A stretch of DNA of 64,000 bases from a virus (IMGVR_UViG_3300045988_149498); one strand, 5' to 3'. Positions 3,367 through 62,962 are shown, numbered from the stretch's first letter. The notes: generated from the sequence alone by a model not told the origin. Translations and numbers: made by a program.

Positions 3367-4264
3367 GCACTGGAAAAACATTACTATTTATAAACTTTCT
3401 CGTGAGGCGGATCTGACCGACTTAGAAGATAAAAAGAAAATGATCCTTTTCACGCCATGCGGTAGTCAGGATATGGCCAAGTTCGGTTTTGTATCGCCAT
3501 TTGGTGATAATTCCGAAGTTATCGCTATGCATGGAAATGGTTTTATCCTTGTTGAAGCAAAGCGCGAAACAAAAATTCTTCCCCCGCCGGTTATCCAGCG
3601 AGCTATTCAAGAAAAAATTGAAAAACTTGAGCAAGAACAAGCGCGTAAACTGAAGAAAACAGAGAAGGACTCCCTGAAAGACGAAGTTCTGCATTCTCTT
3701 CTTCCACGGGCTTTTTCAAAGTTTTCTGTTATCCAGGCGATCTACGACGGTTCAACTAAACGTATCTATATCAATGCCAGCGCGCGGCAGGCAGAAGATA
3801 TGCTCGCGCTTATGCGTAAGTCTCTGGGTTCTCTTCCTGTTGTTCCCCTGAGTGTTGAAAATCCCATTGAATTAACGCTGACCGACTGGGTACGTGATGG
3901 TAGTGCTCCACAGGGATTTCAAATGGGGGATGCGGCAGAACTTAAGGCAGTGCTTGAGGATGGCGGTATTGCCCGAGTGAAAAAGCAGGATTTGGGAAGC
4001 GATGAAATTTCCACACACCTGGAAGCTGGCAAGCTCGTCACTAAGTTGGCACTCGACTGGCAGAACCGCATTAAATTTACACTGGACCATAACTTCAGCC
4101 TTACCAGCGTCAAATTTGCGGATGAATTGCTTGAGCAGAACTCTGATATTGATAGTGAAGATGTTGCGCAGCGACTGGACGCAGATTTCTTCCTGTTGAC
4201 CAGTGAAATTTCGTGCCTGGTTGATGCTCTGGTAAATGCCCTTGGTGGAGAGGCTAAGCAGTGA
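3359..4264 (+). CDS. hrdC: RdgC-like recombination-associated protein
   Basis: Internal start [13 protein letters not shown]...; near-colinear similarity to E. coli RdgC from recall ([34 protein letters not shown]). Confidence 0.9.
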
Positions 4265-7817: not shown

Positions 7818-8054
7818 ATGCAGAACAATCCGAACAAATGTCGAACGCTATGGGTGCGGTTATATATTTATGCCGTCCTCTGTTTGATTGTGTCACTGGT
7901 TCTGTATGTTTGGCTTTTGCCAAATATGATCTCATCTAACAGCACAATACTTGTATTGTTGGGAGTCCTTCTCGCGCTCATTTACCCGGCTTTCGCAGTA
8001 GTCTTTTTTCGTGAAAAAACCAGGAAATTAATTAATGAAAAAAACGTTGATTAG
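7818..8054 (+). CDS. Small inner-membrane protein (two TM helices), upstream of plp
   Basis: ATG after GGAG..GAGG RBS; hydrophobic segments; 3' end overlaps plp start. Confidence 0.65.
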   Translation: MQNNPNKCRTLWVRLYIYAVLCLIVSLVLYVWLLPNMISSNSTILVLLGVLLALIYPAFAVVFFREKTRKLINEKNVD

Positions 8055-8862
8055 TGCAGCGATTATTTTGGGTTCTTTATGTCTGACCGGATGCGATCGG
8101 GTAGAGCCAGGTAACGTAGGGATCAAAGTAAATAAGCTGGGGGATGATAAAGGTATCGGTGAAGTAGTTGGCGTTGGTCGCTACTGGACAGGCTTGAATA
8201 CTGAAGTTTATATCTTCCCGACCTTTAAGCAAATGAAGACATACGATGAGCCGTTCAGCTTCCAGATGAGCGACGGAACAACCATTGGTTACCACATCGG
8301 CGTAGCCTACAAGGTTGATCCAGCAAAAGTCACAACGGTATTTCAGACCTATCGCAAAGGTGTAGATGATATTACTGATACCGATCTACGCCAGAAGGTT
8401 GCAGATGCTCTGAACCGGTTAGCCAGCAAAATGACCACCGACAAATTTATCGACGGTGGCAAATCTGAATTGCTTGATGCAGCCCTTAAAGACATTCAGG
8501 AAGAAATGACGCCAATCGGCATTCAGGTGATGAGCCTCTCTTATGTAGGTAAGCCAGAATACCCGCCAACAGTTATTGACAGTATTAACGCCAAAGTCAC
8601 GGCAAACCAAAAAACCCTGCAACGCGAGCAAGAGGTCAAACAACGTGAAGCAGAGGCCAACATGCTGCGCGCGGAAGCTGCCGGACAGGCTGATGCTATT
8701 CGCACAAAAGCCCAGGCCGAAGCTGATGCCATTCGTTTACGTGGTGAAGCTCTGCGCCAGAACCCCGGTGTTATGGAGTTGGAAGCGATCAACAAATGGA
8801 ACGGTACATTACCGCAGTATATGACCAGTAATACCGCTGTTCCGTTTGTTCCGGTGAAATAA
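8035..8862 (+). CDS. plp: Lipoprotein with SPFH/band-7-like domain
   Basis: Signal peptide plus lipobox LCLTGC; Ala/Gln/Glu-rich coiled coil at C-terminus; position after tRNA genes as in P1. Confidence 0.8.
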   Translation: MKKTLISAAIILGSLCLTGCDRVEPGNVGIKVNKLGDDKGIGEVVGVGRYWTGLNTEVYIFPTFKQMKTYDEPFSFQMSDGTTIGYHIGVAYKVDPAKVTTVFQTYRKGVDDITDTDLRQKVADALNRLASKMTTDKFIDGGKSELLDAALKDIQEEMTPIGIQVMSLSYVGKPEYPPTVIDSINAKVTANQKTLQREQEVKQREAEANMLRAEAAGQADAIRTKAQAEADAIRLRGEALRQNPGVMELEAINKWNGTLPQYMTSNTAVPFVPVK

Positions 8863-53650: not shown

Positions 53651-53830
53651 CTAGTAACTATAAGAGGTGTTAATTATTAATTGACAATCTTTAGTGTTTC
53701 GCGCACCTTGCAAGTATCCAATATTTACTGATTGTGGACGCATAAAGAAGATCCACAGCGTTACAAATTTGTATTTCTTTCTTCAGCAATTAAGCAGGCG
53801 ACTTGCTCTATCCTGCCCAAAGGAACACGT

Positions 53831-55186
53831 ATGACACACTGCAAAGAAAATACTTGGTATGAGCGTCAAGGGTACAATACCACCCGCCCGAATGAGATAA
53901 GGTCGGAGTATGAACGTGATCTTTCCCGGTTAATCCACTCTTCCGCTTTTAGGAGATTACAATCGAAGACGCAGGTGTTGGGATTGGGCGAAAGCGATTT
54001 CTACCGTACGCGGCTAACTCACTCTATGGAAGTAGCGCAAATTGGCGGCGGTATCTTGTCTCAGTTGTCTAAGCGCGATACAGATGAGGGGGGTAAATTC
54101 TTACCTGACCCAAGCCTGATGCAGGCTATCTGCCTTGCTCATGATATAGGACATCCCCCCTTCGGTCATGGTGGTGAGGTCGCACTAAACTACTGCATGA
54201 GATCCTATGGCGGCTTTGAAGGTAACGGGCAGACACTGCGTATACTCTCCAAACTGGATAAGTACACCGAAACCAATGGGCTGGATCCCACCCGTAGACT
54301 TATTTTAGGCGTACTGAAATATCCAGCAAGCTATTCAGAGGTCGTCAATGAGAGGGCTTACAGCCAGTTACAGCCAAGAAGCAATGAGTGGTTGTTTAAA
54401 TCATCCGAATTTAAGCCCCCGAAATGTTACCTGGACTCTGAGGAGAACACTGTTAGATTCGCACTCCAACCTTTTGATAGTGATGATGTTAAGTTATTCA
54501 AAACGGTAAAAACTACCGCGTTGAATAAGCACAAGAAAACAATATATAAAGCACTGGATACAACGATTATGGACTTGGCTGATGAGATATCCTACTCACT
54601 CCATGATCTTGAAGACGCAATTTCTCTGAAGATGATCGACAAAAAAATGTGGGAGGAGCACTTCGAGGACAAGTCCCATTTATTTGCAGCTTGCCAATGC
54701 GACTCGTTTAATCTAAAAGCCGATGATGTAGCTGAAAAACTGTTCGGCGAAAGTTATCTACGCAAGGAGTGCATAGGGACACTTGTTCATCTGATGATCA
54801 CTAGCGTTAAGCTTGAAGTGCAGAACTCTGATTTCAAAAGTAAAATTTTACGCTATAAAGTGGCACTTCCTGCCGCGGTAGAAGAGTTACGTAAAGCCAT
54901 TTTTGAGCTGGTTAGGAACAAAGTTATTCAGCACGAAAACGTCCAACTATTAGAGTTCAAAGGTCAGAAACTGATTGTGGAACTATTCAATGTACTGGCA
55001 AATGACCCAATACGTTTTCTCCCGACAGAAACTCGAAAGAAATATAATCAAGAGGAAGCAAAAGGTGATGATAAAAAAATGCGCGTCATTTGCGACTATG
55101 TTTCAGGCATGACAGATGATTACGCTACTCGACTGTATGAGAAAATATTTGTACCGAGAAAAGGCTCTATTTTTGATAGACTCTGA
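53831..55186 (+). CDS. dGTP triphosphohydrolase-family HD-domain protein (451 aa); candidate nucleotide-depletion defence
   Basis: ATG 6 nt after AAAGGAA; motifs RTRLTHSMEVAQIG and AHDIGHPPFGHGGE of the Dgt/HD family; AT-rich islet. Confidence 0.8.
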   Translation: MTHCKENTWYERQGYNTTRPNEIRSEYERDLSRLIHSSAFRRLQSKTQVLGLGESDFYRTRLTHSMEVAQIGGGILSQLSKRDTDEGGKFLPDPSLMQAICLAHDIGHPPFGHGGEVALNYCMRSYGGFEGNGQTLRILSKLDKYTETNGLDPTRRLILGVLKYPASYSEVVNERAYSQLQPRSNEWLFKSSEFKPPKCYLDSEENTVRFALQPFDSDDVKLFKTVKTTALNKHKKTIYKALDTTIMDLADEISYSLHDLEDAISLKMIDKKMWEEHFEDKSHLFAACQCDSFNLKADDVAEKLFGESYLRKECIGTLVHLMITSVKLEVQNSDFKSKILRYKVALPAAVEELRKAIFELVRNKVIQHENVQLLEFKGQKLIVELFNVLANDPIRFLPTETRKKYNQEEAKGDDKKMRVICDYVSGMTDDYATRLYEKIFVPRKGSIFDRL

Positions 55187-55393: not shown

Positions 55394-55762
55394 TTATAAT
55401 CTTTTAATCAGGCTCTCAATATTAGTTGGTTCAAAGTAATGCTTATTAACCTCTCCATTTATGAGGAAACCGTCTTTTAGTAGTCGGTCTAGCTCACGCT
55501 CTGCTTCTTTGTTGAACATACCTGGATATATTCTCTTGTACAACTGAAATGTACCATTCATATTCCTGTAAGCATTCTCAGCAATTTCAATGGATATTTC
55601 ATTTCCGGCGTTAAATACAGGAATGAATATCTCAAGAATATCATTCTTTAACTTCTGTTTAAGTTTCTTTTTTTCAACAATATTAGAATAAAAGATACCT
55701 AAAAAAAATGTGCAGATACCAGGAAGCCAATTATTAACGAAAACCTCAGACAAAGCGTCCAC
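55394..55762 (-). CDS. Small membrane-anchored protein of unknown function, 122 aa
   Basis: GTG start 9 nt after GGAG; N-terminal TM helix WLPGICTFFLGIFYSNIV; AT-rich; convergent with dGTPase gene. Confidence 0.5.
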   Translation of the reverse strand: MDALSEVFVNNWLPGICTFFLGIFYSNIVEKKKLKQKLKNDILEIFIPVFNAGNEISIEIAENAYRNMNGTFQLYKRIYPGMFNKEAERELDRLLKDGFLINGEVNKHYFEPTNIESLIKRL

Positions 55763-55968: not shown

Positions 55969-56277
55969 CTAATATACAAACTGATCCACATGATCACCCA
56001 AATCATCGTCGTCGTCCTCATCGCCACCATCTACTGCTGGCCAATCAACAAACCAGCCAGCGTAAAGATGCAGCGTTCGGAGAACATCACTTGCGGGAGC
56101 ATCAAGGGTGTTAACGAATCCCATATAGCTATTGGGATTTGCCCCTGCTATGGCTTCAGCGATCATGTCCTCGGTAATGTCACCGGAGATAATGCTTAAA
56201 CGCCCGGAAACTTCTTCATTATCATCAAATTCGATAATGGCATCTCCGCCTAATGGCGCTGCGATTTTAATCTGCAT
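55969..56277 (-). CDS. Highly acidic small protein (102 aa), last gene of darA operon
   Basis: Start overlaps ddrB stop; C-terminal DGGDEDDDDDLGDHVD; very low predicted pI. Confidence 0.55.
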   Translation of the reverse strand: MQIKIAAPLGGDAIIEFDDNEEVSGRLSIISGDITEDMIAEAIAGANPNSYMGFVNTLDAPASDVLRTLHLYAGWFVDWPAVDGGDEDDDDDLGDHVDQFVY

Positions 56278-59254
56278 TATTTAGCTCCTTTGCCACACCT
56301 AATAACAGTTCCAGCAATCCGTCACCATTCATCAGTGATGCGGCAGCGGCCTCTTTGTCATGATACAACTGAAGAGCCATAGAGAATACTTCCGTTGCTG
56401 ACGTTTTGGAAATAGTCGGTGATTTCTGCCGAATTTTCCCGGTGTTACTTACTGAGGCTGGCGGGTATACCTTCGCCATATAAATATTACTCAATCGAGA
56501 TCTGAAGCACCATTCAGGCTTGCCACGCCCACCGATATTAACGAAAGATGGCTTATCCCCTTCAACATTGGCCTTCAGGAATGACCGGGCTTTCTCTAAC
56601 AAACCAGGGTTACTGTACTCAAGATGATGACCCAGCTCGTGCCACAGTGCACTTGCATTTTCATCGTTCAAATTGACAGCAACAACACCATTAAGATTTG
56701 CATATGCCCTTCCCTGGTGGTGAACCACCTTTGATAAGGTCGAAATTTTACCGCCGGTCAGGCGATAAATATCAGCAAGTTCCTTGCGCAGGTCTATCCC
56801 ACCATTCTGTCCAGCGCGGGCTTCTTCCACTTCTTCCGTGATAAAAGAGTCGGCCCACTCAAGAGCTTTTTCTTCAGATACGGATGAGTTTGCGATCGCA
56901 CTGTTCATGGCAGATAACACTTTCTCGTGGACCGAACCCATACTTCGCTGATTCATTTGCCAGCGTGTCTGCGGGTTATATGAGAATCGCTTAAGTAGTT
57001 GGTCAAGCTGCTCAAGTTCTTCTTCACTGACATACCTTTTAGCCTCACCAATAATGCCAGGGAGAATATTGCCGTTAGGATTAAACGCTCGCGAAAGGAA
57101 GAGTTTCAGTGCCCCCATGCCCTCCGATGCTTCAATATCACCAATAACCCGGTTAACAATGGCCGCACTCTTCGGATTAGCATCCGCCAACGCTCTGGTT
57201 ACGATTTGCAGGGACGATACGACCTCACGCTGCATATCAGTCCTGATCTCATCAATAAACTCTGGCGTTATGCCGTGCTCTTTAAGGATATCCCGGCCTT
57301 CCGCCGTTACCCCATCGATATCACCGACATGTTTATTAACACGACTTTGCAATGCCTTAAATGCCTTCAGAATTCCACGGGCATCATCCGCTTTACTAAC
57401 GGCCTTCCTGAATGCTGTCAAGAAGTCTGAGTTAACCTCATTTTGTTGATCGGCCCACTGAATGGAGGCATCTTTCATCTCGTCCAGAGTCAGATCACCC
57501 AACGCGGTATGGTCTGTGAATATGAGCGACAACCTCTGAACCATTTCTGCCAATGGTGATGCCGAATGCGCCGCGCTAAGGAATGCTTTCACCCTGGTTG
57601 GGCGAATGGAAAACCAGTCAATAGCTGGTGGCATATCTCCGTTTTTTATCGCCTGCGCTATCTCGTCAAAGCCATCGCGCCCAAGGGAGGATGCGTGATT
57701 TAACAAGCCGCGAAGTAACGAATTGCTGATACCGAATAATCGGCACCATTTTTTCACGTCGGCAACAGGCATTCGAACAAAATGCGCAAGCACTTGTACA
57801 AGCTGTTCATCATGGGGATCTGTACGGGAAAGCAGCCTGATCAGATGAATAATGTCTTTGATGCCGGATGCCCGATGTAATAGCAAACTGGTATATGGAG
57901 CAACACCGTTGTAACTACCGCCGGAAACGGACTCGAAAAGACCGCCGGATATCCCTTGCATGCCTTCGTTTTCCAGTTCCTGAGACACCTGGCGAAGGAT
58001 ATCCTGTAACGACACATCACCACCGCCAAACATATCCCCCAGCGCCTGGCCCTGGTGCTGTAACTCATCATTTATACGTTGTGCCATCAATTTAAAGGCG
58101 GTGGCCATACGCTTCGCGCTACGGTTATTCGCGACGATGAACAACGCGAGAGCTTTCACTTCCGGGGCTGTTTCGCTGAACATATCCCCCTGAGCAATAA
58201 CATCGGTAATATGTTGGCCTGACTCCTTCGATTGCCTTACCAGGTCTACCGCATCTTTCAATGCCGCCAGCGCCTTTTTATCGAGGCTATCCGCTGTTTC
58301 AATGCCATCAACGATAGTTGTCACAGCCTGCTTGTGCGCTTCTCCTGATAAAGCCTGCATCTGGACAAAATCATTGGCTGCCGCATTAAGCGCCGTCAGA
58401 ACATTACGCATATCCGGATCAGGTTCTTCTGCAACCATCCTTACCAGGCGCGCATCCTTATATGCCTTGGCAAAGATCGCGTTTTGTATACGGTCTACAA
58501 GTTGCCGTGTTGGTCGCCCATCTTCCGTTACAAGGCCAGCAGCCTGTGTGGCACCAACTTGCGTCATGAATCCGCGGATAAACGCGTCATTACTGCGGCT
58601 AAGCAGATCTCCGCTTTCTGATGGGTTAAACAGCGCCATCATCGCCGGAGTTATGCTGTCGGCATCAACAAAAGCCTTTTCACTGGCTGCCATTTCCTGA
58701 AGATCAGAAATATTTGAGTCCTTGGCAAACTGAACGCGGTCAACCTTAGTTAACCGGCGGCGCACCAGTACCGGAGCCGCCATTGATTCAACCTTTTCAG
58801 GTCGTATGCCGAATTCGGTCGCATGATCAATCAGGTACTCACGATACCGATCCGCATTGCCGTCCTGATAGGCTTTGATGATCCCCATGGTCCGTCCATT
58901 ACCTGACTCAACGGCATTGTCCTCACCAATTATCGGCGCTCCATGGCTGGATAAACCGGAATCGGTAAGCTGAGCAGGCCGCAAATCCTTGGATATCTGG
59001 TTAACCTGAAGAAGGCTGGATGCGCGGGTCCGGTCGCGCGGCTGAAGTTCCTGGGGATAGTCCGGATTAATTTTCCCGTCCAGAGTATTGGATACCAAAA
59101 GAGCTGAGGCATCGACGATATCAAACGCTGTTTTTACCTCGTCTCCCTTCGCTGTCACCACATACGAAACCCGCCCGAAATCGGGCAGGTTTTTTAGCAG
59201 CTCGATCAGCGTTTCTATGCTGGTGGCCATTACCACCTGATCGCTTAAGCTCAT
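56267..59254 (-). CDS. ddrB: DdrB-like large protein of the darA operon, 995 aa
   Basis: Size and operon position (after darA-ddrA) as in P1; HExxH-like segment LWHELGHHLE. Confidence 0.6.
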   Translation of the reverse strand: MSLSDQVVMATSIETLIELLKNLPDFGRVSYVVTAKGDEVKTAFDIVDASALLVSNTLDGKINPDYPQELQPRDRTRASSLLQVNQISKDLRPAQLTDSGLSSHGAPIIGEDNAVESGNGRTMGIIKAYQDGNADRYREYLIDHATEFGIRPEKVESMAAPVLVRRRLTKVDRVQFAKDSNISDLQEMAASEKAFVDADSITPAMMALFNPSESGDLLSRSNDAFIRGFMTQVGATQAAGLVTEDGRPTRQLVDRIQNAIFAKAYKDARLVRMVAEEPDPDMRNVLTALNAAANDFVQMQALSGEAHKQAVTTIVDGIETADSLDKKALAALKDAVDLVRQSKESGQHITDVIAQGDMFSETAPEVKALALFIVANNRSAKRMATAFKLMAQRINDELQHQGQALGDMFGGGDVSLQDILRQVSQELENEGMQGISGGLFESVSGGSYNGVAPYTSLLLHRASGIKDIIHLIRLLSRTDPHDEQLVQVLAHFVRMPVADVKKWCRLFGISNSLLRGLLNHASSLGRDGFDEIAQAIKNGDMPPAIDWFSIRPTRVKAFLSAAHSASPLAEMVQRLSLIFTDHTALGDLTLDEMKDASIQWADQQNEVNSDFLTAFRKAVSKADDARGILKAFKALQSRVNKHVGDIDGVTAEGRDILKEHGITPEFIDEIRTDMQREVVSSLQIVTRALADANPKSAAIVNRVIGDIEASEGMGALKLFLSRAFNPNGNILPGIIGEAKRYVSEEELEQLDQLLKRFSYNPQTRWQMNQRSMGSVHEKVLSAMNSAIANSSVSEEKALEWADSFITEEVEEARAGQNGGIDLRKELADIYRLTGGKISTLSKVVHHQGRAYANLNGVVAVNLNDENASALWHELGHHLEYSNPGLLEKARSFLKANVEGDKPSFVNIGGRGKPEWCFRSRLSNIYMAKVYPPASVSNTGKIRQKSPTISKTSATEVFSMALQLYHDKEAAAASLMNGDGLLELLLGVAKELNNAD

Positions 59255-59266
59255 CCCTGTTACGCC

Positions 59267-59632
59267 TTATGCTGCCTCTTTAATGTTGGCGGCTATCCAT
59301 GCCGCCGTGTGCTGTTTAACCTGGTCCAGGTCGATGTATGTGCCAACATATTGACTCAAGTCCTGTAACGTACCGATAAATGCATCAGTGCTCTGATCGA
59401 CGAATTTATCAGCCAGGAATTCAGCAACCAGTTTTGGCACACCATCATGTTCCGAAGGTTGTTTTTCTTCGCCACTACCGCCGCCAGACGCGCCGTACCC
59501 CATCTGTTGCATGATCTGGTCAATTTCATCGCTGATATCCAGCAACTCCATGCCACTCGCGGTAGCCGCTTTGGACATCAGAGCATCCAACTTATCGCTG
59601 AGGTCCATTAACTCAATCGCTGATAGTGTCAT
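59267..59632 (-). CDS. ddrA: DdrA-like small acidic protein, 121 aa
   Basis: ATGA overlap with darA stop; operon position. Confidence 0.55.
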   Translation of the reverse strand: MTLSAIELMDLSDKLDALMSKAATASGMELLDISDEIDQIMQQMGYGASGGGSGEEKQPSEHDGVPKLVAEFLADKFVDQSTDAFIGTLQDLSQYVGTYIDLDQVKQHTAAWIAANIKEAA

Positions 59633-61548
59633 GCCGCTACCCCCGCTTTCTGGATTGCTACCAGCAGATCAGCCAGGTGGCGAGCTGCGCCATTAACCAG
59701 CTCTTCGTTTTCCTCAAAACGCCCGGCAGCCTGAAGGGCTGCAATCGCTTCCCGGACATTACCCCGGGCGTTACGGATCTCCGCCATGTCAGTGCTTTGC
59801 ATATCCATCACGCTATTGAGATATTCAATGGCTTTATTAGCCTCTGCATCTGCTTCGCTAACCGTTTCATCAGGCTGTGCCGGGACCGGTTCTGGTTGAG
59901 TAATCTCACCGACTTCGGCCTGCAATGCATTGATCATGCTCTGCACCATTTTCTCGATGCCAGCGCCCCCTGGAAACGCAATATTGGGGAAAGTTTTTTG
60001 AAACTGAGTTTTCAGCATTACGCGGAACTCGTCTGGTGAGCTGGTGGCCAGCTCCAGAGCTTTTTGTGCATATTTGCCAAACGGACCATTAGTAAGTGTC
60101 TTCGCCAGGAAGTCGAAAGAATCCTCGCGAGGCAATAACTTCAGGTCGTACTCACTCATTTGCTGATCAGAAAGCGGGGTATCGTAAGTAACAATGCCGT
60201 AGCGTGCATATTCATAATACGGGTCACCTTCATCAGGGCGCGGCAGAATTGCTTTGTTACCTTCAGGTATTGCGCCAGGGGCCGCCGGACGCATTTGCAG
60301 GGCATATCGATATGCACCTACAGAGACTTCTGGTTCAGGCAAAGAGCTACCGGTATCCTCCGCTGATTCAGGTTCGACGTTTTCCGGTTTATGTTCTTCT
60401 GGTTGGACCAGATATTCCGATACATTACCCGCTTTATAGGCTTTAAACAGCTTGCCGATCGCATCTGCCATGTCCACACCCTGTATGGATTTAGCCTTGA
60501 TCATGTACACGCTGCCATCCGAATCGGTTAACTGGATATACCCTTCGCCGTCCTCAATGAATTGCTTCATTGATGCACCATTACTGAGCGTCACTTCCCC
60601 GTTCATATGCATACGATTTTTGATACTGGCAAGGCGATCCGTCATCGCGCGAGAGTGTCCACCAGTCATCCCCGCAGGAGCAATGGTTTCGCGTCCACCA
60701 GTGCGATTGAGCTGATCAATCTCCGTCTGCAAACGCTCATTCTCTTCATAAAGAGAATCCGCTTCCGATGCAACAGCGTTAATTTTCTGCTCCAGATCTA
60801 CCTTCTGCCCTTCTACCGCTGCCACCTGATCCGCGAGGTCACTCATGGCATCCTCTTTCTGGTCACTATCAGCCTGTAGTTGGGTTATTTCATCAACCAG
60901 GGCTTTTTTCTTCTTCTGCGCACGCTGGAATTTTGCCGAGTTTTTCTCTGCAAGGTTGGCAAGTTTCATGGTGACCTGCGCCAGCGTCATATCACGTCCA
61001 CTCATCGGAGCAACGGTATGAGTAACGTCTTTTTTATTCAGTAAGAACTGGAAAGCAACCAGCGTATCGCTATTGGTGATCCGGTTTTCCGCTGTCGGGC
61101 TATGAAACAGAATGCTGATAGTCTGACCATCACTGAGCGGAATAATGGCCGGCAGGACCGGCAGCCCGTTAACGTTACGTGCCCGGCCAATTTCAGCCCC
61201 GCCGATCGCGCGTGCACCGTTCTGGGCCACATCCCCCGTTTTATCACTCCCCGCAGAGATTCCGGTACCATTCAGCTTCTGGTTCAATGCCCGGACAAAT
61301 GCCTGCATGGTCCGGTGTAGCTGCAAACGAGTAGAACTAATCGCCTCCAGTAAATCCGTAGCACACCAGTGGATCGGCGTGTCATAGAAGAACGTAGCCT
61401 CGATTTCTTCCAGGGTGTTGGATTCCGTCATCAGATAGCGGTCCTCACCGGCCATTAATGCGCGATATTCATCATCAGTCACCGGCTGGGGAAGCACGTC
61501 AAGCCCAGGTTTGATCGTCACCCCTTTATTGATATTGAACTGTTCCAT
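59629..61548 (-). CDS. darA: DarA antirestriction/head-associated protein, 639 aa
   Basis: Size matches P1 DarA; shares AEKNSAKFQRA segment with upstream paralog Hdf. Confidence 0.85.
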   Translation of the reverse strand: MEQFNINKGVTIKPGLDVLPQPVTDDEYRALMAGEDRYLMTESNTLEEIEATFFYDTPIHWCATDLLEAISSTRLQLHRTMQAFVRALNQKLNGTGISAGSDKTGDVAQNGARAIGGAEIGRARNVNGLPVLPAIIPLSDGQTISILFHSPTAENRITNSDTLVAFQFLLNKKDVTHTVAPMSGRDMTLAQVTMKLANLAEKNSAKFQRAQKKKKALVDEITQLQADSDQKEDAMSDLADQVAAVEGQKVDLEQKINAVASEADSLYEENERLQTEIDQLNRTGGRETIAPAGMTGGHSRAMTDRLASIKNRMHMNGEVTLSNGASMKQFIEDGEGYIQLTDSDGSVYMIKAKSIQGVDMADAIGKLFKAYKAGNVSEYLVQPEEHKPENVEPESAEDTGSSLPEPEVSVGAYRYALQMRPAAPGAIPEGNKAILPRPDEGDPYYEYARYGIVTYDTPLSDQQMSEYDLKLLPREDSFDFLAKTLTNGPFGKYAQKALELATSSPDEFRVMLKTQFQKTFPNIAFPGGAGIEKMVQSMINALQAEVGEITQPEPVPAQPDETVSEADAEANKAIEYLNSVMDMQSTDMAEIRNARGNVREAIAALQAAGRFEENEELVNGAARHLADLLVAIQKAGVAA

Positions 61549-61549
61549 G

Positions 61550-62161
61550 TTAATTTCCTGCTTTCAGTTGCTTAAGACGGCGTTTGAGTTCGCCATTTCG
61601 GGCCTTTTCGTTATTGAGTCGGCCTGTCTCCTTATCCAGCTTCGCCCGCAAATCAGTGATCTGCTGTTGAGTGAAAGACACCGAGTTCTGCGCTGATTTA
61701 TAAGCGGCAACCACCTGAGCATTCCGCTGTTTTGCCTCTTGCAGGCGCTGAAAGTTGGATTTTACTGCCGGTTTCTTGTCTACCGGATTGGCAACACGTT
61801 TCGCTTTGGCGATCAGTGATTTCTGGAATTTTGCGGAGTTTTTGCGGGCCGCTTGCCCCATGACGGTACCAAGCGTCTTGATATCCGGCGACTGAGCGTT
61901 AGGAATAGCTTTTCCATTCAGCTTCACAGACGATATATCGCCAGTATCGTTTACCTGTATGGCAAGAATTTGTCCGTCGTTAAGAACCAGCTTTGCGGTT
62001 TTAACTTTAACGCCATCTTTCGTTGTTGCGCGGTTGCTGGAGTCAACCTCAATTACCGTAACACCGGTTTTATTGATCGCCGCGATAAGGGATTTCAGCC
62101 CCTTTTCATTAACCTGGTCAAAATCGACCGTTGCATACTTATTTTTCGTCATCTGACACAT
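61550..62161 (-). CDS. hdf: Hdf, homolog of DarA fragment; start may be M4
   Basis: Segment GQILAIQVND...ARKNSAKFQKS paralogous to DarA. Confidence 0.8.
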   Translation of the reverse strand: MCQMTKNKYATVDFDQVNEKGLKSLIAAINKTGVTVIEVDSSNRATTKDGVKVKTAKLVLNDGQILAIQVNDTGDISSVKLNGKAIPNAQSPDIKTLGTVMGQAARKNSAKFQKSLIAKAKRVANPVDKKPAVKSNFQRLQEAKQRNAQVVAAYKSAQNSVSFTQQQITDLRAKLDKETGRLNNEKARNGELKRRLKQLKAGN

Positions 62162-62582
62162 CCTGTGCGAGATTTATTACGTAACTTCTGCGGATTTGCT
62201 GAGTAACAGGGAAAATCCGATACAACGGGTTAATGAACGAGTCGCCATGCGTAACCATGACGTTGAAATGCCACAGTCGCTCTCCTTTACCCATATATTC
62301 AGTGGGTATGTACAACCATTCACTGTTTTCGCCCTGTTCAGCCGACGTCAGACAACGTTGTTCACCTTCAATCACTGTCGTCGGCTTCTGAACATCGCGG
62401 ATCCAATATCTGACCGTTGCGCCGCGCAAAAACGGGAATTTAGACCGGTACTTGAACGGCACCCGGATGAAACCCGGTTTAATTTCCACATCACCAAGTT
62501 CTAAATGCGTGATGTCCTTGCGTTTTAGCAAATAGCGATCGGCTAAGGCTAACGCAAGAACGCATACACCCCAGCCAATCAT
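62139..62582 (-). CDS. lydB: Putative antiholin, 147 aa
   Basis: Second gene of operon, ATGA overlap with holin gene. Confidence 0.6.
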   Translation of the reverse strand: MIGWGVCVLALALADRYLLKRKDITHLELGDVEIKPGFIRVPFKYRSKFPFLRGATVRYWIRDVQKPTTVIEGEQRCLTSAEQGENSEWLYIPTEYMGKGERLWHFNVMVTHGDSFINPLYRIFPVTQQIRRSYVINLAQDVSDDEK

Positions 62583-62908
62583 TTCCCGCCTCCCTTTTTC
62601 ACCAAACTTGTAAGAACATTCAGAATGCTATCGATATTCACTCGTTTCATCCCTGAAATCACCTCATGACCGTTATTGCTGGCTATCGTTACCATTAAGT
62701 ACGTAATTGATAACTCCCAGCCCTCGTGTTGCCCCAATAGGTACGCCACCGCGCCAGCTGTCACTGCAACAAAGATCTCCGTAACCAATCCCAACAAATT
62801 GCCAGACTGGCGACCGTCTCGGACATCCATCAGGAACGTGCCTATCCCACCAATTACTGAAAGCAGGAGCGCAATAGCAACTGGAGCTAATTCCTGTGTG
62901 TCAAGCAC
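62579..62908 (-). CDS. lydA: Holin, 109 aa with three hydrophobic segments
   Basis: TM-rich product; first gene after late-promoter-like motif. Confidence 0.65.
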   Translation of the reverse strand: MLDTQELAPVAIALLLSVIGGIGTFLMDVRDGRQSGNLLGLVTEIFVAVTAGAVAYLLGQHEGWELSITYLMVTIASNNGHEVISGMKRVNIDSILNVLTSLVKKGGGK

Positions 62909-62962
62909 AAGTTCCCTCCTACGTTGTCAGGAGGTAATGGTATGCAAAGTAACTTCTCAACC

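Follow-up and report, generated by a model that had tools for sequence, protein, structure and literature searches.

The strongly acidic open reading frame that closes the darA antirestriction operon in the viral DNA analysed here (64,000 nucleotides, hereafter the window) is, judged by its sequence, the bacteriophage P1 gene hxr, already catalogued and annotated since 2004. Because it is a known P1 gene it is not novel as an object, and it is presented here as a known gene without an assigned function and not as a discovery. The predicted structure of its product, Hxr, shows an alpha/beta domain of about 80 residues without detectable relatives of known structure, followed by a disordered polyanionic tail. 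The existing database annotation of hxr is wrong, and action of Hxr as a diffusible DNA mimic in the style of Ocr is disfavoured. The explanation that we place first, tentatively and at less than an even chance, is that Hxr serves as a roughly stoichiometric partner of DdrB, or as a charge-cap, within the Dar system.

Among phages P1 is a workhorse, and resistance and defence genes are commonly carried by P1-like phage-plasmids in Enterobacterales. An unsupported 'repressor' label has stayed on hxr for twenty years and is spreading to new genomes, an annotation that the present result corrects. We found no discussion of Hxr function in the searchable literature; its role might account for the handling of DdrB ahead of packaging, or bring to light a mimic of a new style.

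hxr as the last gene of the dar operon

The hxr coding sequence lies at 55969..56277 on the minus strand, stop codon included, and specifies 102 residues from an ATG start: MQIKIAAPLGGDAIIEFDDNEEVSGRLSIISGDITEDMIAEAIAGANPNSYMGFVNTLDAPASDVLRTLHLYAGWFVDWPAVDGGDEDDDDDLGDHVDQFVY. In a megablast search the region matched P1 and its relatives at 95-99% identity, with the open reading frame annotated as hxr in those records, and from hxr to beyond lydA the alignment with P1 runs gap-free at 98% nucleotide identity. The product is 96-97% identical to an Escherichia coli protein cluster of 848 members (P0001) and is a member of PHROG 2292, a family without assigned function whose profile it matches over its whole length (residues 1-102 of 102, E = 2.3e-58). 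The sequence-only reading had described an acidic 102-residue protein encoded by the final open reading frame of the darA operon, its start overlapping the ddrB stop, and each of these points holds; it had proposed a comparison with the equivalent position in P1 and had not identified the gene as the annotated P1 hxr. The P1 orthologue (P1_gp021, YP_006490.1) agrees in length, in its position after ddrB and in the overlap, and differs only at the allelic level (98% DNA identity).

The hxr start codon occupies 56277-56275 and the ddrB stop codon 56269-56267, an overlap of 11 nt (56267..56277, minus strand), and a Shine-Dalgarno sequence, AAGGAG (56285..56290, minus strand), stands 7 nt before the ATG within the conserved K-E-L codons at the DdrB C-terminus. 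An AGGA core 7 nt 5' of the start is kept in all aligned ddrB-hxr junctions, and overlaps of 11-17 nt recur in contigs L003, L004, L006, L090, L092, L094 and L096. The junction thus shows, as far as gene layout can, that the synthesis of Hxr is translationally coupled to ddrB. Around hxr, searches for Rfam families and for intrinsic terminators were negative.

Following the P1 annotation, the operon reads LPdar-lydA-lydB-hdf-darA-ddrA-ddrB-hxr, all on the minus strand. The late promoter LPdar, with its -22 and -10 elements at 62937..62955, is the sole promoter that the P1 annotation gives for the operon, with no further internal one, and the 45 nt around it are 100% identical between the window and P1. 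The first genes, lydA (62579-62908) and lydB (62139-62582), were mapped from the P1 annotation through the gap-free 98% alignment, and are followed by hdf (61550..62161, 203 aa), darA (59629..61548, 639 aa), ddrA (59267..59632, 121 aa) and ddrB (56267..59254, 995 aa). Encoded in the dar operon under a late promoter, hxr is placed as a Dar component would be. An antisense open reading frame of 132 aa inside ddrB (58302-58700, plus strand) is the annotated P1 gene iddB.

DdrB itself carries a ddrB-ParB domain at residues 36-167, a HExxH zincin motif at residues 872-876 (56627-56641, minus strand; the metallopeptidase assignment is that of PMC5512222) and, just after this motif, a basic patch of net charge +9 at residues 901-950 (56405-56554, minus strand). 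It has been described as a polyvalent protein with a C-terminal zincin peptidase that is reportedly processed before packaging (Iyer et al. 2017, PMC5512222), and it helps the loading of DarB into the capsid (PMC9024508).

Conservation, family and genomic setting

A scan of IMG/VR with a profile of the DdrB C-terminus returned 80 loci, and an intact Hxr open reading frame starting 11 nt before the end of ddrB was present in all 80. The Asp/Glu run DEDDDDD (56002..56022, minus strand), built of GAC/GAT triplet repeats, varies in length among P1-like genomes, the Asp run extending from about 4 to 8 residues across the IMG/VR loci, and these length changes are always in frame. Among 22 distinct alleles the first 80 codons carry 15 synonymous and 12 non-synonymous changes (pN/pS ~0.23), and no other part of the gene changes as fast as the tail. 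At 29-45% identity, homologues still retain the length of 95-100 aa, the motifs, the position, the acidic tail and its hydrophobic tip; the invariant residues are L66, W75, W79 and P80, and the characteristic motif is GWxVxWPxVEG. Given the 80 intact copies out of 80, the in-frame poly-Asp changes, the constraint on the core and the conserved divergent homologues, hxr is on sequence grounds a real, conserved gene and not a chance open reading frame.

HMMER, run exhaustively over 1.84 billion representative proteins, yielded 18 hits. The credible ones are proteins of about 100 aa, fragments of these, or one tandem duplicate (P0015, 184 aa); neither free-standing copies of Hxr nor DdrB-Hxr fusions of the Rosetta stone kind occur among the 18. 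The large repeat proteins P0022, P0024 and P0026 were considered as domain relatives and set aside as spurious, since their scores are summed over weak repeats; on inspection they are surface or coiled-coil repeat proteins. The named sources of Hxr are Escherichia, Klebsiella, Citrobacter, Cronobacter, Enterobacter and Rosenbergiella, and the divergent members lie mostly on contigs of 80-96 kb, the size of a P1-like phage-plasmid. As delimited by these searches, the family is very small, and its members are limited to P1-like phage-plasmids of Enterobacterales. The tandem duplicate is encoded at 8001-8555 of a metagenome contig (L006; ERZ1749178 NODE_426), and its first Hxr copy lacks the long acidic tail.

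All contexts examined show the order lydB-hdf-darA-ddrA-ddrB-hxr with an overlap of 11-17 nt, including those of the homologues at 29-45% identity, which come from P1-like contigs of Klebsiella, Citrobacter, Cronobacter, Enterobacter and Rosenbergiella. In L094 a HicB-like antitoxin gene on the opposite strand (1985-2425) splits ddrA from ddrB, and ddrB and hxr are still coupled. We infer an obligate-partner pattern, as hxr is never found apart from ddrB, is never missing with this type of ddrB, and keeps its coupling. The two genes have also moved together on one occasion. The last ~110 codons of ddrB and hxr (55969..56600, minus strand) are only 57-82% identical in nucleotide sequence to L006, whereas the remainder of ddrB, as far as a point at ~56600 just after the HExxH motif, is 94-100% identical; the 3' end of ddrB, which includes the basic patch at DdrB residues 901-950, and hxr were therefore exchanged as one mosaic block. 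The right-hand edge of this block adjoins a recombination hotspot. A search for other cases in which the DdrB C-terminus and hxr were joined in a mosaic event found L006 alone.

The genes 3' of hxr differ between lineages, being isaB-IS1-isaA in P1 and a dGTPase gene in the window. Because they change in each lineage, the conserved part of the operon ends with hxr, which borders what is by gene content a cargo hotspot. The same slot holds a RelE/MqsA toxin-antitoxin pair in L003, an Arc-like gene in L004, a porin gene in L006 and a CHAP-domain gene in L094, while an Enterobacter P1-like contig (L096, 6386-8853) has downstream of hxr a PDC-M01 candidate defence pair, consisting of a PtuA-like ATPase and a 280-aa partner (E = 3e-173 and 2e-76). 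In the window, a 484-aa HD/HD_assoc protein encoded at 53732-55186 (plus strand) matches the PADLOC model of dGTPase anti-phage defence at E = 5e-149, and its gene fills the slot between ssb and hxr where P1 has isaA-IS1-isaB; phage vB_EcoM-673R5 shows the same arrangement, with the gene annotated as two CDSs. Between the dGTPase gene and hxr, 206 nt downstream of the latter, lies a 122-aa open reading frame (55394-55762, minus strand) with a promoter-like site at 55863-55834 and a match to PHROG 26730, and with no Pfam or PADLOC hit. It probably belongs to the cargo rather than to the dar operon.

Outside the recognized family, a 91-kb contig of Rosenbergiella metrosideri (L011) encodes at 3491-3814 an acidic protein of 107 aa (net charge -14, ending in PEIN) whose gene overlaps the stop of a DdrB-like gene of 979 aa, the position that hxr would take. 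Neither HMMER nor PHROGs gave a match between this protein and Hxr; hhalign aligned the two in register (GD, VL..L, G..WP) at an E-value of only 0.023. It may be a very divergent Hxr homologue. Two loci outside the P1 group were also noted, on a Uliginosibacterium chromosome scaffold (L012, 1981-6473) and in a Luteimonas MAG (L013, 256-4655). Each encodes a protein of 617-656 aa with a HExxH C-terminus of the DdrB type, and the stop codon of its gene overlaps the start codon of a following gene for a DarB-like N6-methyltransferase. The DarB-like proteins bear ~155 extra residues at the N-terminus, of which the first ~100 are acidic and resemble Hxr by eye. Homology of these N-termini to Hxr was not supported, and the likeness is one of position: hhalign gave a probability below 1%, an unfiltered local hmmsearch, with all speed filters off, found no Hxr match in them, they have no Pfam match, and a database search with both gave no further members.

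Predicted structure and the repressor and DNA-mimic readings

Hxr contains 23 Asp and Glu residues against three Lys and Arg, giving a net charge of -20 in a protein of 11.0 kDa with a calculated pI at the lower limit of the scale (<= 4.05), and it is the most acidic product among the 113 open reading frames of at least 80 aa in the window. The acidity is unevenly spread: Asp and Glu make up 22.5% of the whole, 15% of the first 80 residues, which form the predicted folded core, and 41% of the last 22, so that about half of the negative charge sits in a C-terminal tail of ~22 residues. The earlier description of a protein dominated by Asp and Glu was thus right as to acidity and overstated as to dominance. 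The protein ends in ...DGGDEDDDDDLGDHVDQFVY, so that the C-terminal string quoted with that description does occur but is not terminal, four more residues, QFVY, coming after it. P1-like genomes mostly read ...DDDDD(D)FGDHVDQIVY at the tail, as against ...DDDDDLGDHVDQFVY here.

An AlphaFold2 (AF2) model built on a diverse alignment of 25 sequences reached a pLDDT of 77 and a pTM of 0.66, compared with a pLDDT of 49 when six near-identical sequences were used. In it, codons 1-80 (56038..56277, minus strand) form an alpha/beta core, an assignment to which the alignment and the pN/pS of 0.23 also point, with pLDDT mostly 83-90 (69 for residues 21-30). The predicted strands span residues 2-6, 12-16 and 28-32, with a short final one at 76-77, and the predicted helices residues 36-44 and 62-71, separated by a loop with two bridge residues. 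From about residue 83 the pLDDT falls below 50, and codons 81-102 (55972..56037, minus strand) are predicted to form a disordered polyanionic tail of net charge -10, with a hydrophobic tip that is FVY here and IVN in most relatives. All 25 aligned sequences have a negatively charged tail (net -5 to -14), while in the core only about five acidic residues are positionally conserved, among them E16, D19, D33 and D78.

Searches for relatives of known function or fold were negative. Neither Pfam nor NCBIfam at E <= 10, nor PADLOC at a permissive threshold, returned a hit; searching the PDB by sequence and by profile gave either no hit or none of significance; and Foldseek of the model against the PDB and BFVD gave no match better than E = 0.3. 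These results bear directly on the annotation carried by the databases, in which Hxr stands in the P1 record as a 'possible repressor; homolog of Xre', a label that has been copied into other genome records and would make the protein an Xre-like transcriptional repressor. The sole support for it is the identity noted in the P1 record, 28% over ~58 residues. The profile searches detected none of HTH_3, HTH_19 and HTH_31, the predicted three N-terminal beta strands and two helices do not resemble a five-helix HTH bundle, DNA binding is not compatible with the net charge of -20, and hxr closes a late structural operon as its last cistron. With no HTH hit, a beta-rich alpha/beta model and such a charge, the Xre label is unsupported; Xre homology was rejected as contradicted by the profile, fold and charge results, and a repressor role is extremely improbable.

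The same searches speak to the proposal of the sequence-only reading that Hxr is a DNA mimic of the Ocr/ArdA type. Its premises, placement at an antirestriction locus and strong acidity, are borne out, and Hxr does share with DNA mimics a small size and a strong negative charge conserved across the family. A relationship to Ocr or ArdA finds no such backing: membership of either family was rejected, the Pfam, PDB sequence and profile, and fold searches all being negative, and the implied mode of action is disfavoured. On DNA entry Ocr and ArdA are made first, and their action on the enzyme is in trans (PMC12707154), whereas Dar protection is strictly in cis, co-infecting Dar-minus phages not being rescued (reviewed in PMC12707154); going by annotation and the literature, immediate-early expression and action in trans are not features of hxr. 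The late operon, the cis-only action of Dar, the absence of Hxr from the proteins detected in virions, the location of the charge in the tail and the acidity of the neighbouring proteins together argue against an Ocr-style mode of action.

Lack of homology to Ocr and ArdA does not in itself dispose of a mimic-like role. The known mimics Ocr, ArdA, Arn and Gam show no mutual homology (EcoSal review PMC12707154), and the missing homology is therefore no objection to a mimic-like Hxr. Thus Hxr could be an autonomous polyanionic anti-defence protein, like a DNA mimic and unrelated to Ocr and ArdA, that would block a host DNA-binding enzyme (type I restriction-modification, BREX, RecBCD or another defence) and would act late in the producing cell or be injected in small amounts with the Dar proteins. 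Its size of 11 kDa, its net charge of -20 and pI of <= 4.05, an acidity kept in every member of the family, its location in an antirestriction operon and the rapid change of its tail relative to the rest of the gene would all fit such an effector, and virion proteomics could have missed it. Against this, the promoter is late and not early, and a soluble inhibitor should work in trans where Dar works strictly in cis. Moreover hxr, unlike mobile anti-defence genes, is never away from ddrB and never missing beside this type of ddrB; the conserved acidic positions of the core number about five, half of the charge lying in a disordered tail; and the protein is not listed among those of the virion. 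Nor is its acidity distinctive, as the other Dar proteins DdrA (net charge -14), DarA (-33), DdrB (-23) and DarB (-52) are acidic too. We consider this autonomous role unlikely.

Hxr, the virion and DdrB

In the LC-MS/MS analysis of P1 virions, Ulx, DarB, DdrB, DdrA, DarA and Hdf were listed and Hxr was not (PMC9024508). This absence is weak evidence, because that study applied a two-peptide threshold (PMC9024508) and the tryptic map of Hxr is poor, comprising peptides of 4, 22, 41 and 35 residues of which one to three are usable; Hxr could be packaged after all. It would then be a minor internal head protein, the seventh packaged Dar component, loaded with DdrB and ejected with the DNA, and would have a structural or charge-balancing function instead of an inhibitory one. 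Its operon also encodes six head-internal proteins, mostly acidic, the coupling to ddrB is conserved, and the peptide threshold and tryptic map could hide Hxr from detection. However, DdrA, equally small and acidic (121 aa), was detected in the same purified virions, and no capsid-targeting signal is known for Hxr, so that we regard packaging in this role as distinctly improbable. Knock-down of hxr by CRISPRi left plating unaffected on a non-restricting K-12 host, on which the gene is thus non-essential (PMC10695390).

We therefore return to a partnership with DdrB, which we hold to be the best of the explanations considered while giving it well under half of the probability. Hxr would be made in roughly equal amounts with DdrB, and its folded domain would dock on the C-terminal metallopeptidase region of that protein, leaving the acidic tail to occupy a basic or DNA-binding surface, be it DdrB residues 901-950, the ParB-like domain or Hdf. 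In this way it might keep DdrB soluble, inactive or free of DNA in the late-infected cell until the procapsid is loaded, acting in the producing cell and being packaged barely or not at all. Hxr would then belong to the Dar antirestriction and head-loading module as an accessory so far overlooked. Hdf (net charge +21, pI 10.2) is a candidate electrostatic partner for the acidic Dar components, the Hxr tail included, because it is the only strongly basic Dar protein and the rest are acidic.

The conserved coupling, the co-inherited block, the division into core and tail, the +9 patch of DdrB and the late promoter are all consistent with this proposed partnership. Strict synteny and coupling would also fit any conserved last gene of an operon, and the mosaic block, as a single event, provides a hint. 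In a broader formulation, Hxr would be an overlooked seventh Dar component with a new fold, whose disordered polyanionic tail serves as a flexible DNA or charge mimic, Hxr either capping the DNA-binding or peptidase region of DdrB until the head is loaded or being co-injected against a DNA-targeting defence of the host. This is possible, though we hold it to be less likely than not; if true, the mimicry would reside in a tail, unlike that of the rigid Ocr and ArdA type. The probability left over from the partnership and its rivals belongs to roles outside those listed here.

Several known systems may be compared with Hxr. One is P1 DdrA (PHROG 1855, 'DdrA-like anti-restriction protein'), a neighbouring small acidic product of the same operon without sequence similarity to Hxr; DdrA has been detected in virions and has been assigned an EcoA-related role, whereas Hxr was not detected and has no role assigned to it (PMC9024508). 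T7 Ocr and the ArdA proteins of Tn916 and plasmids resemble Hxr in being small, very acidic, encoded by mobile elements and set in an antirestriction context, but share no sequence or fold similarity with it. Ocr and ArdA are rigid dimers with their charge on surfaces, whereas Hxr carries half of its charge in a predicted disordered tail; they are the first to be expressed on entry and act in trans, in contrast to the late operon of hxr and the cis-only action of Dar.

Two further comparisons concern a partner protein and a tail. In the colicin E-Im, barnase-barstar and NucA-NuiA systems, the gene for a small acidic partner or immunity protein directly follows that of a nuclease or protease. 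Hxr, likewise of ~100 aa, acidic and translationally coupled behind a large protein for which ParB-like nuclease and zincin peptidase domains are predicted, may be compared with them by analogy only, there being no homology. E. coli SSB (ending in DDDIPF) and T7 gp2.5 are single-stranded DNA-binding proteins with acidic C-terminal tails. Although the Hxr tip reads [ILVF]-V-N or V-Y instead of the I-P-F of SSB, and its core has neither a match among solved folds nor a DNA-binding domain, the predicted Hxr shares with these proteins a folded domain succeeded by a disordered acidic tail whose hydrophobic tip is conserved.
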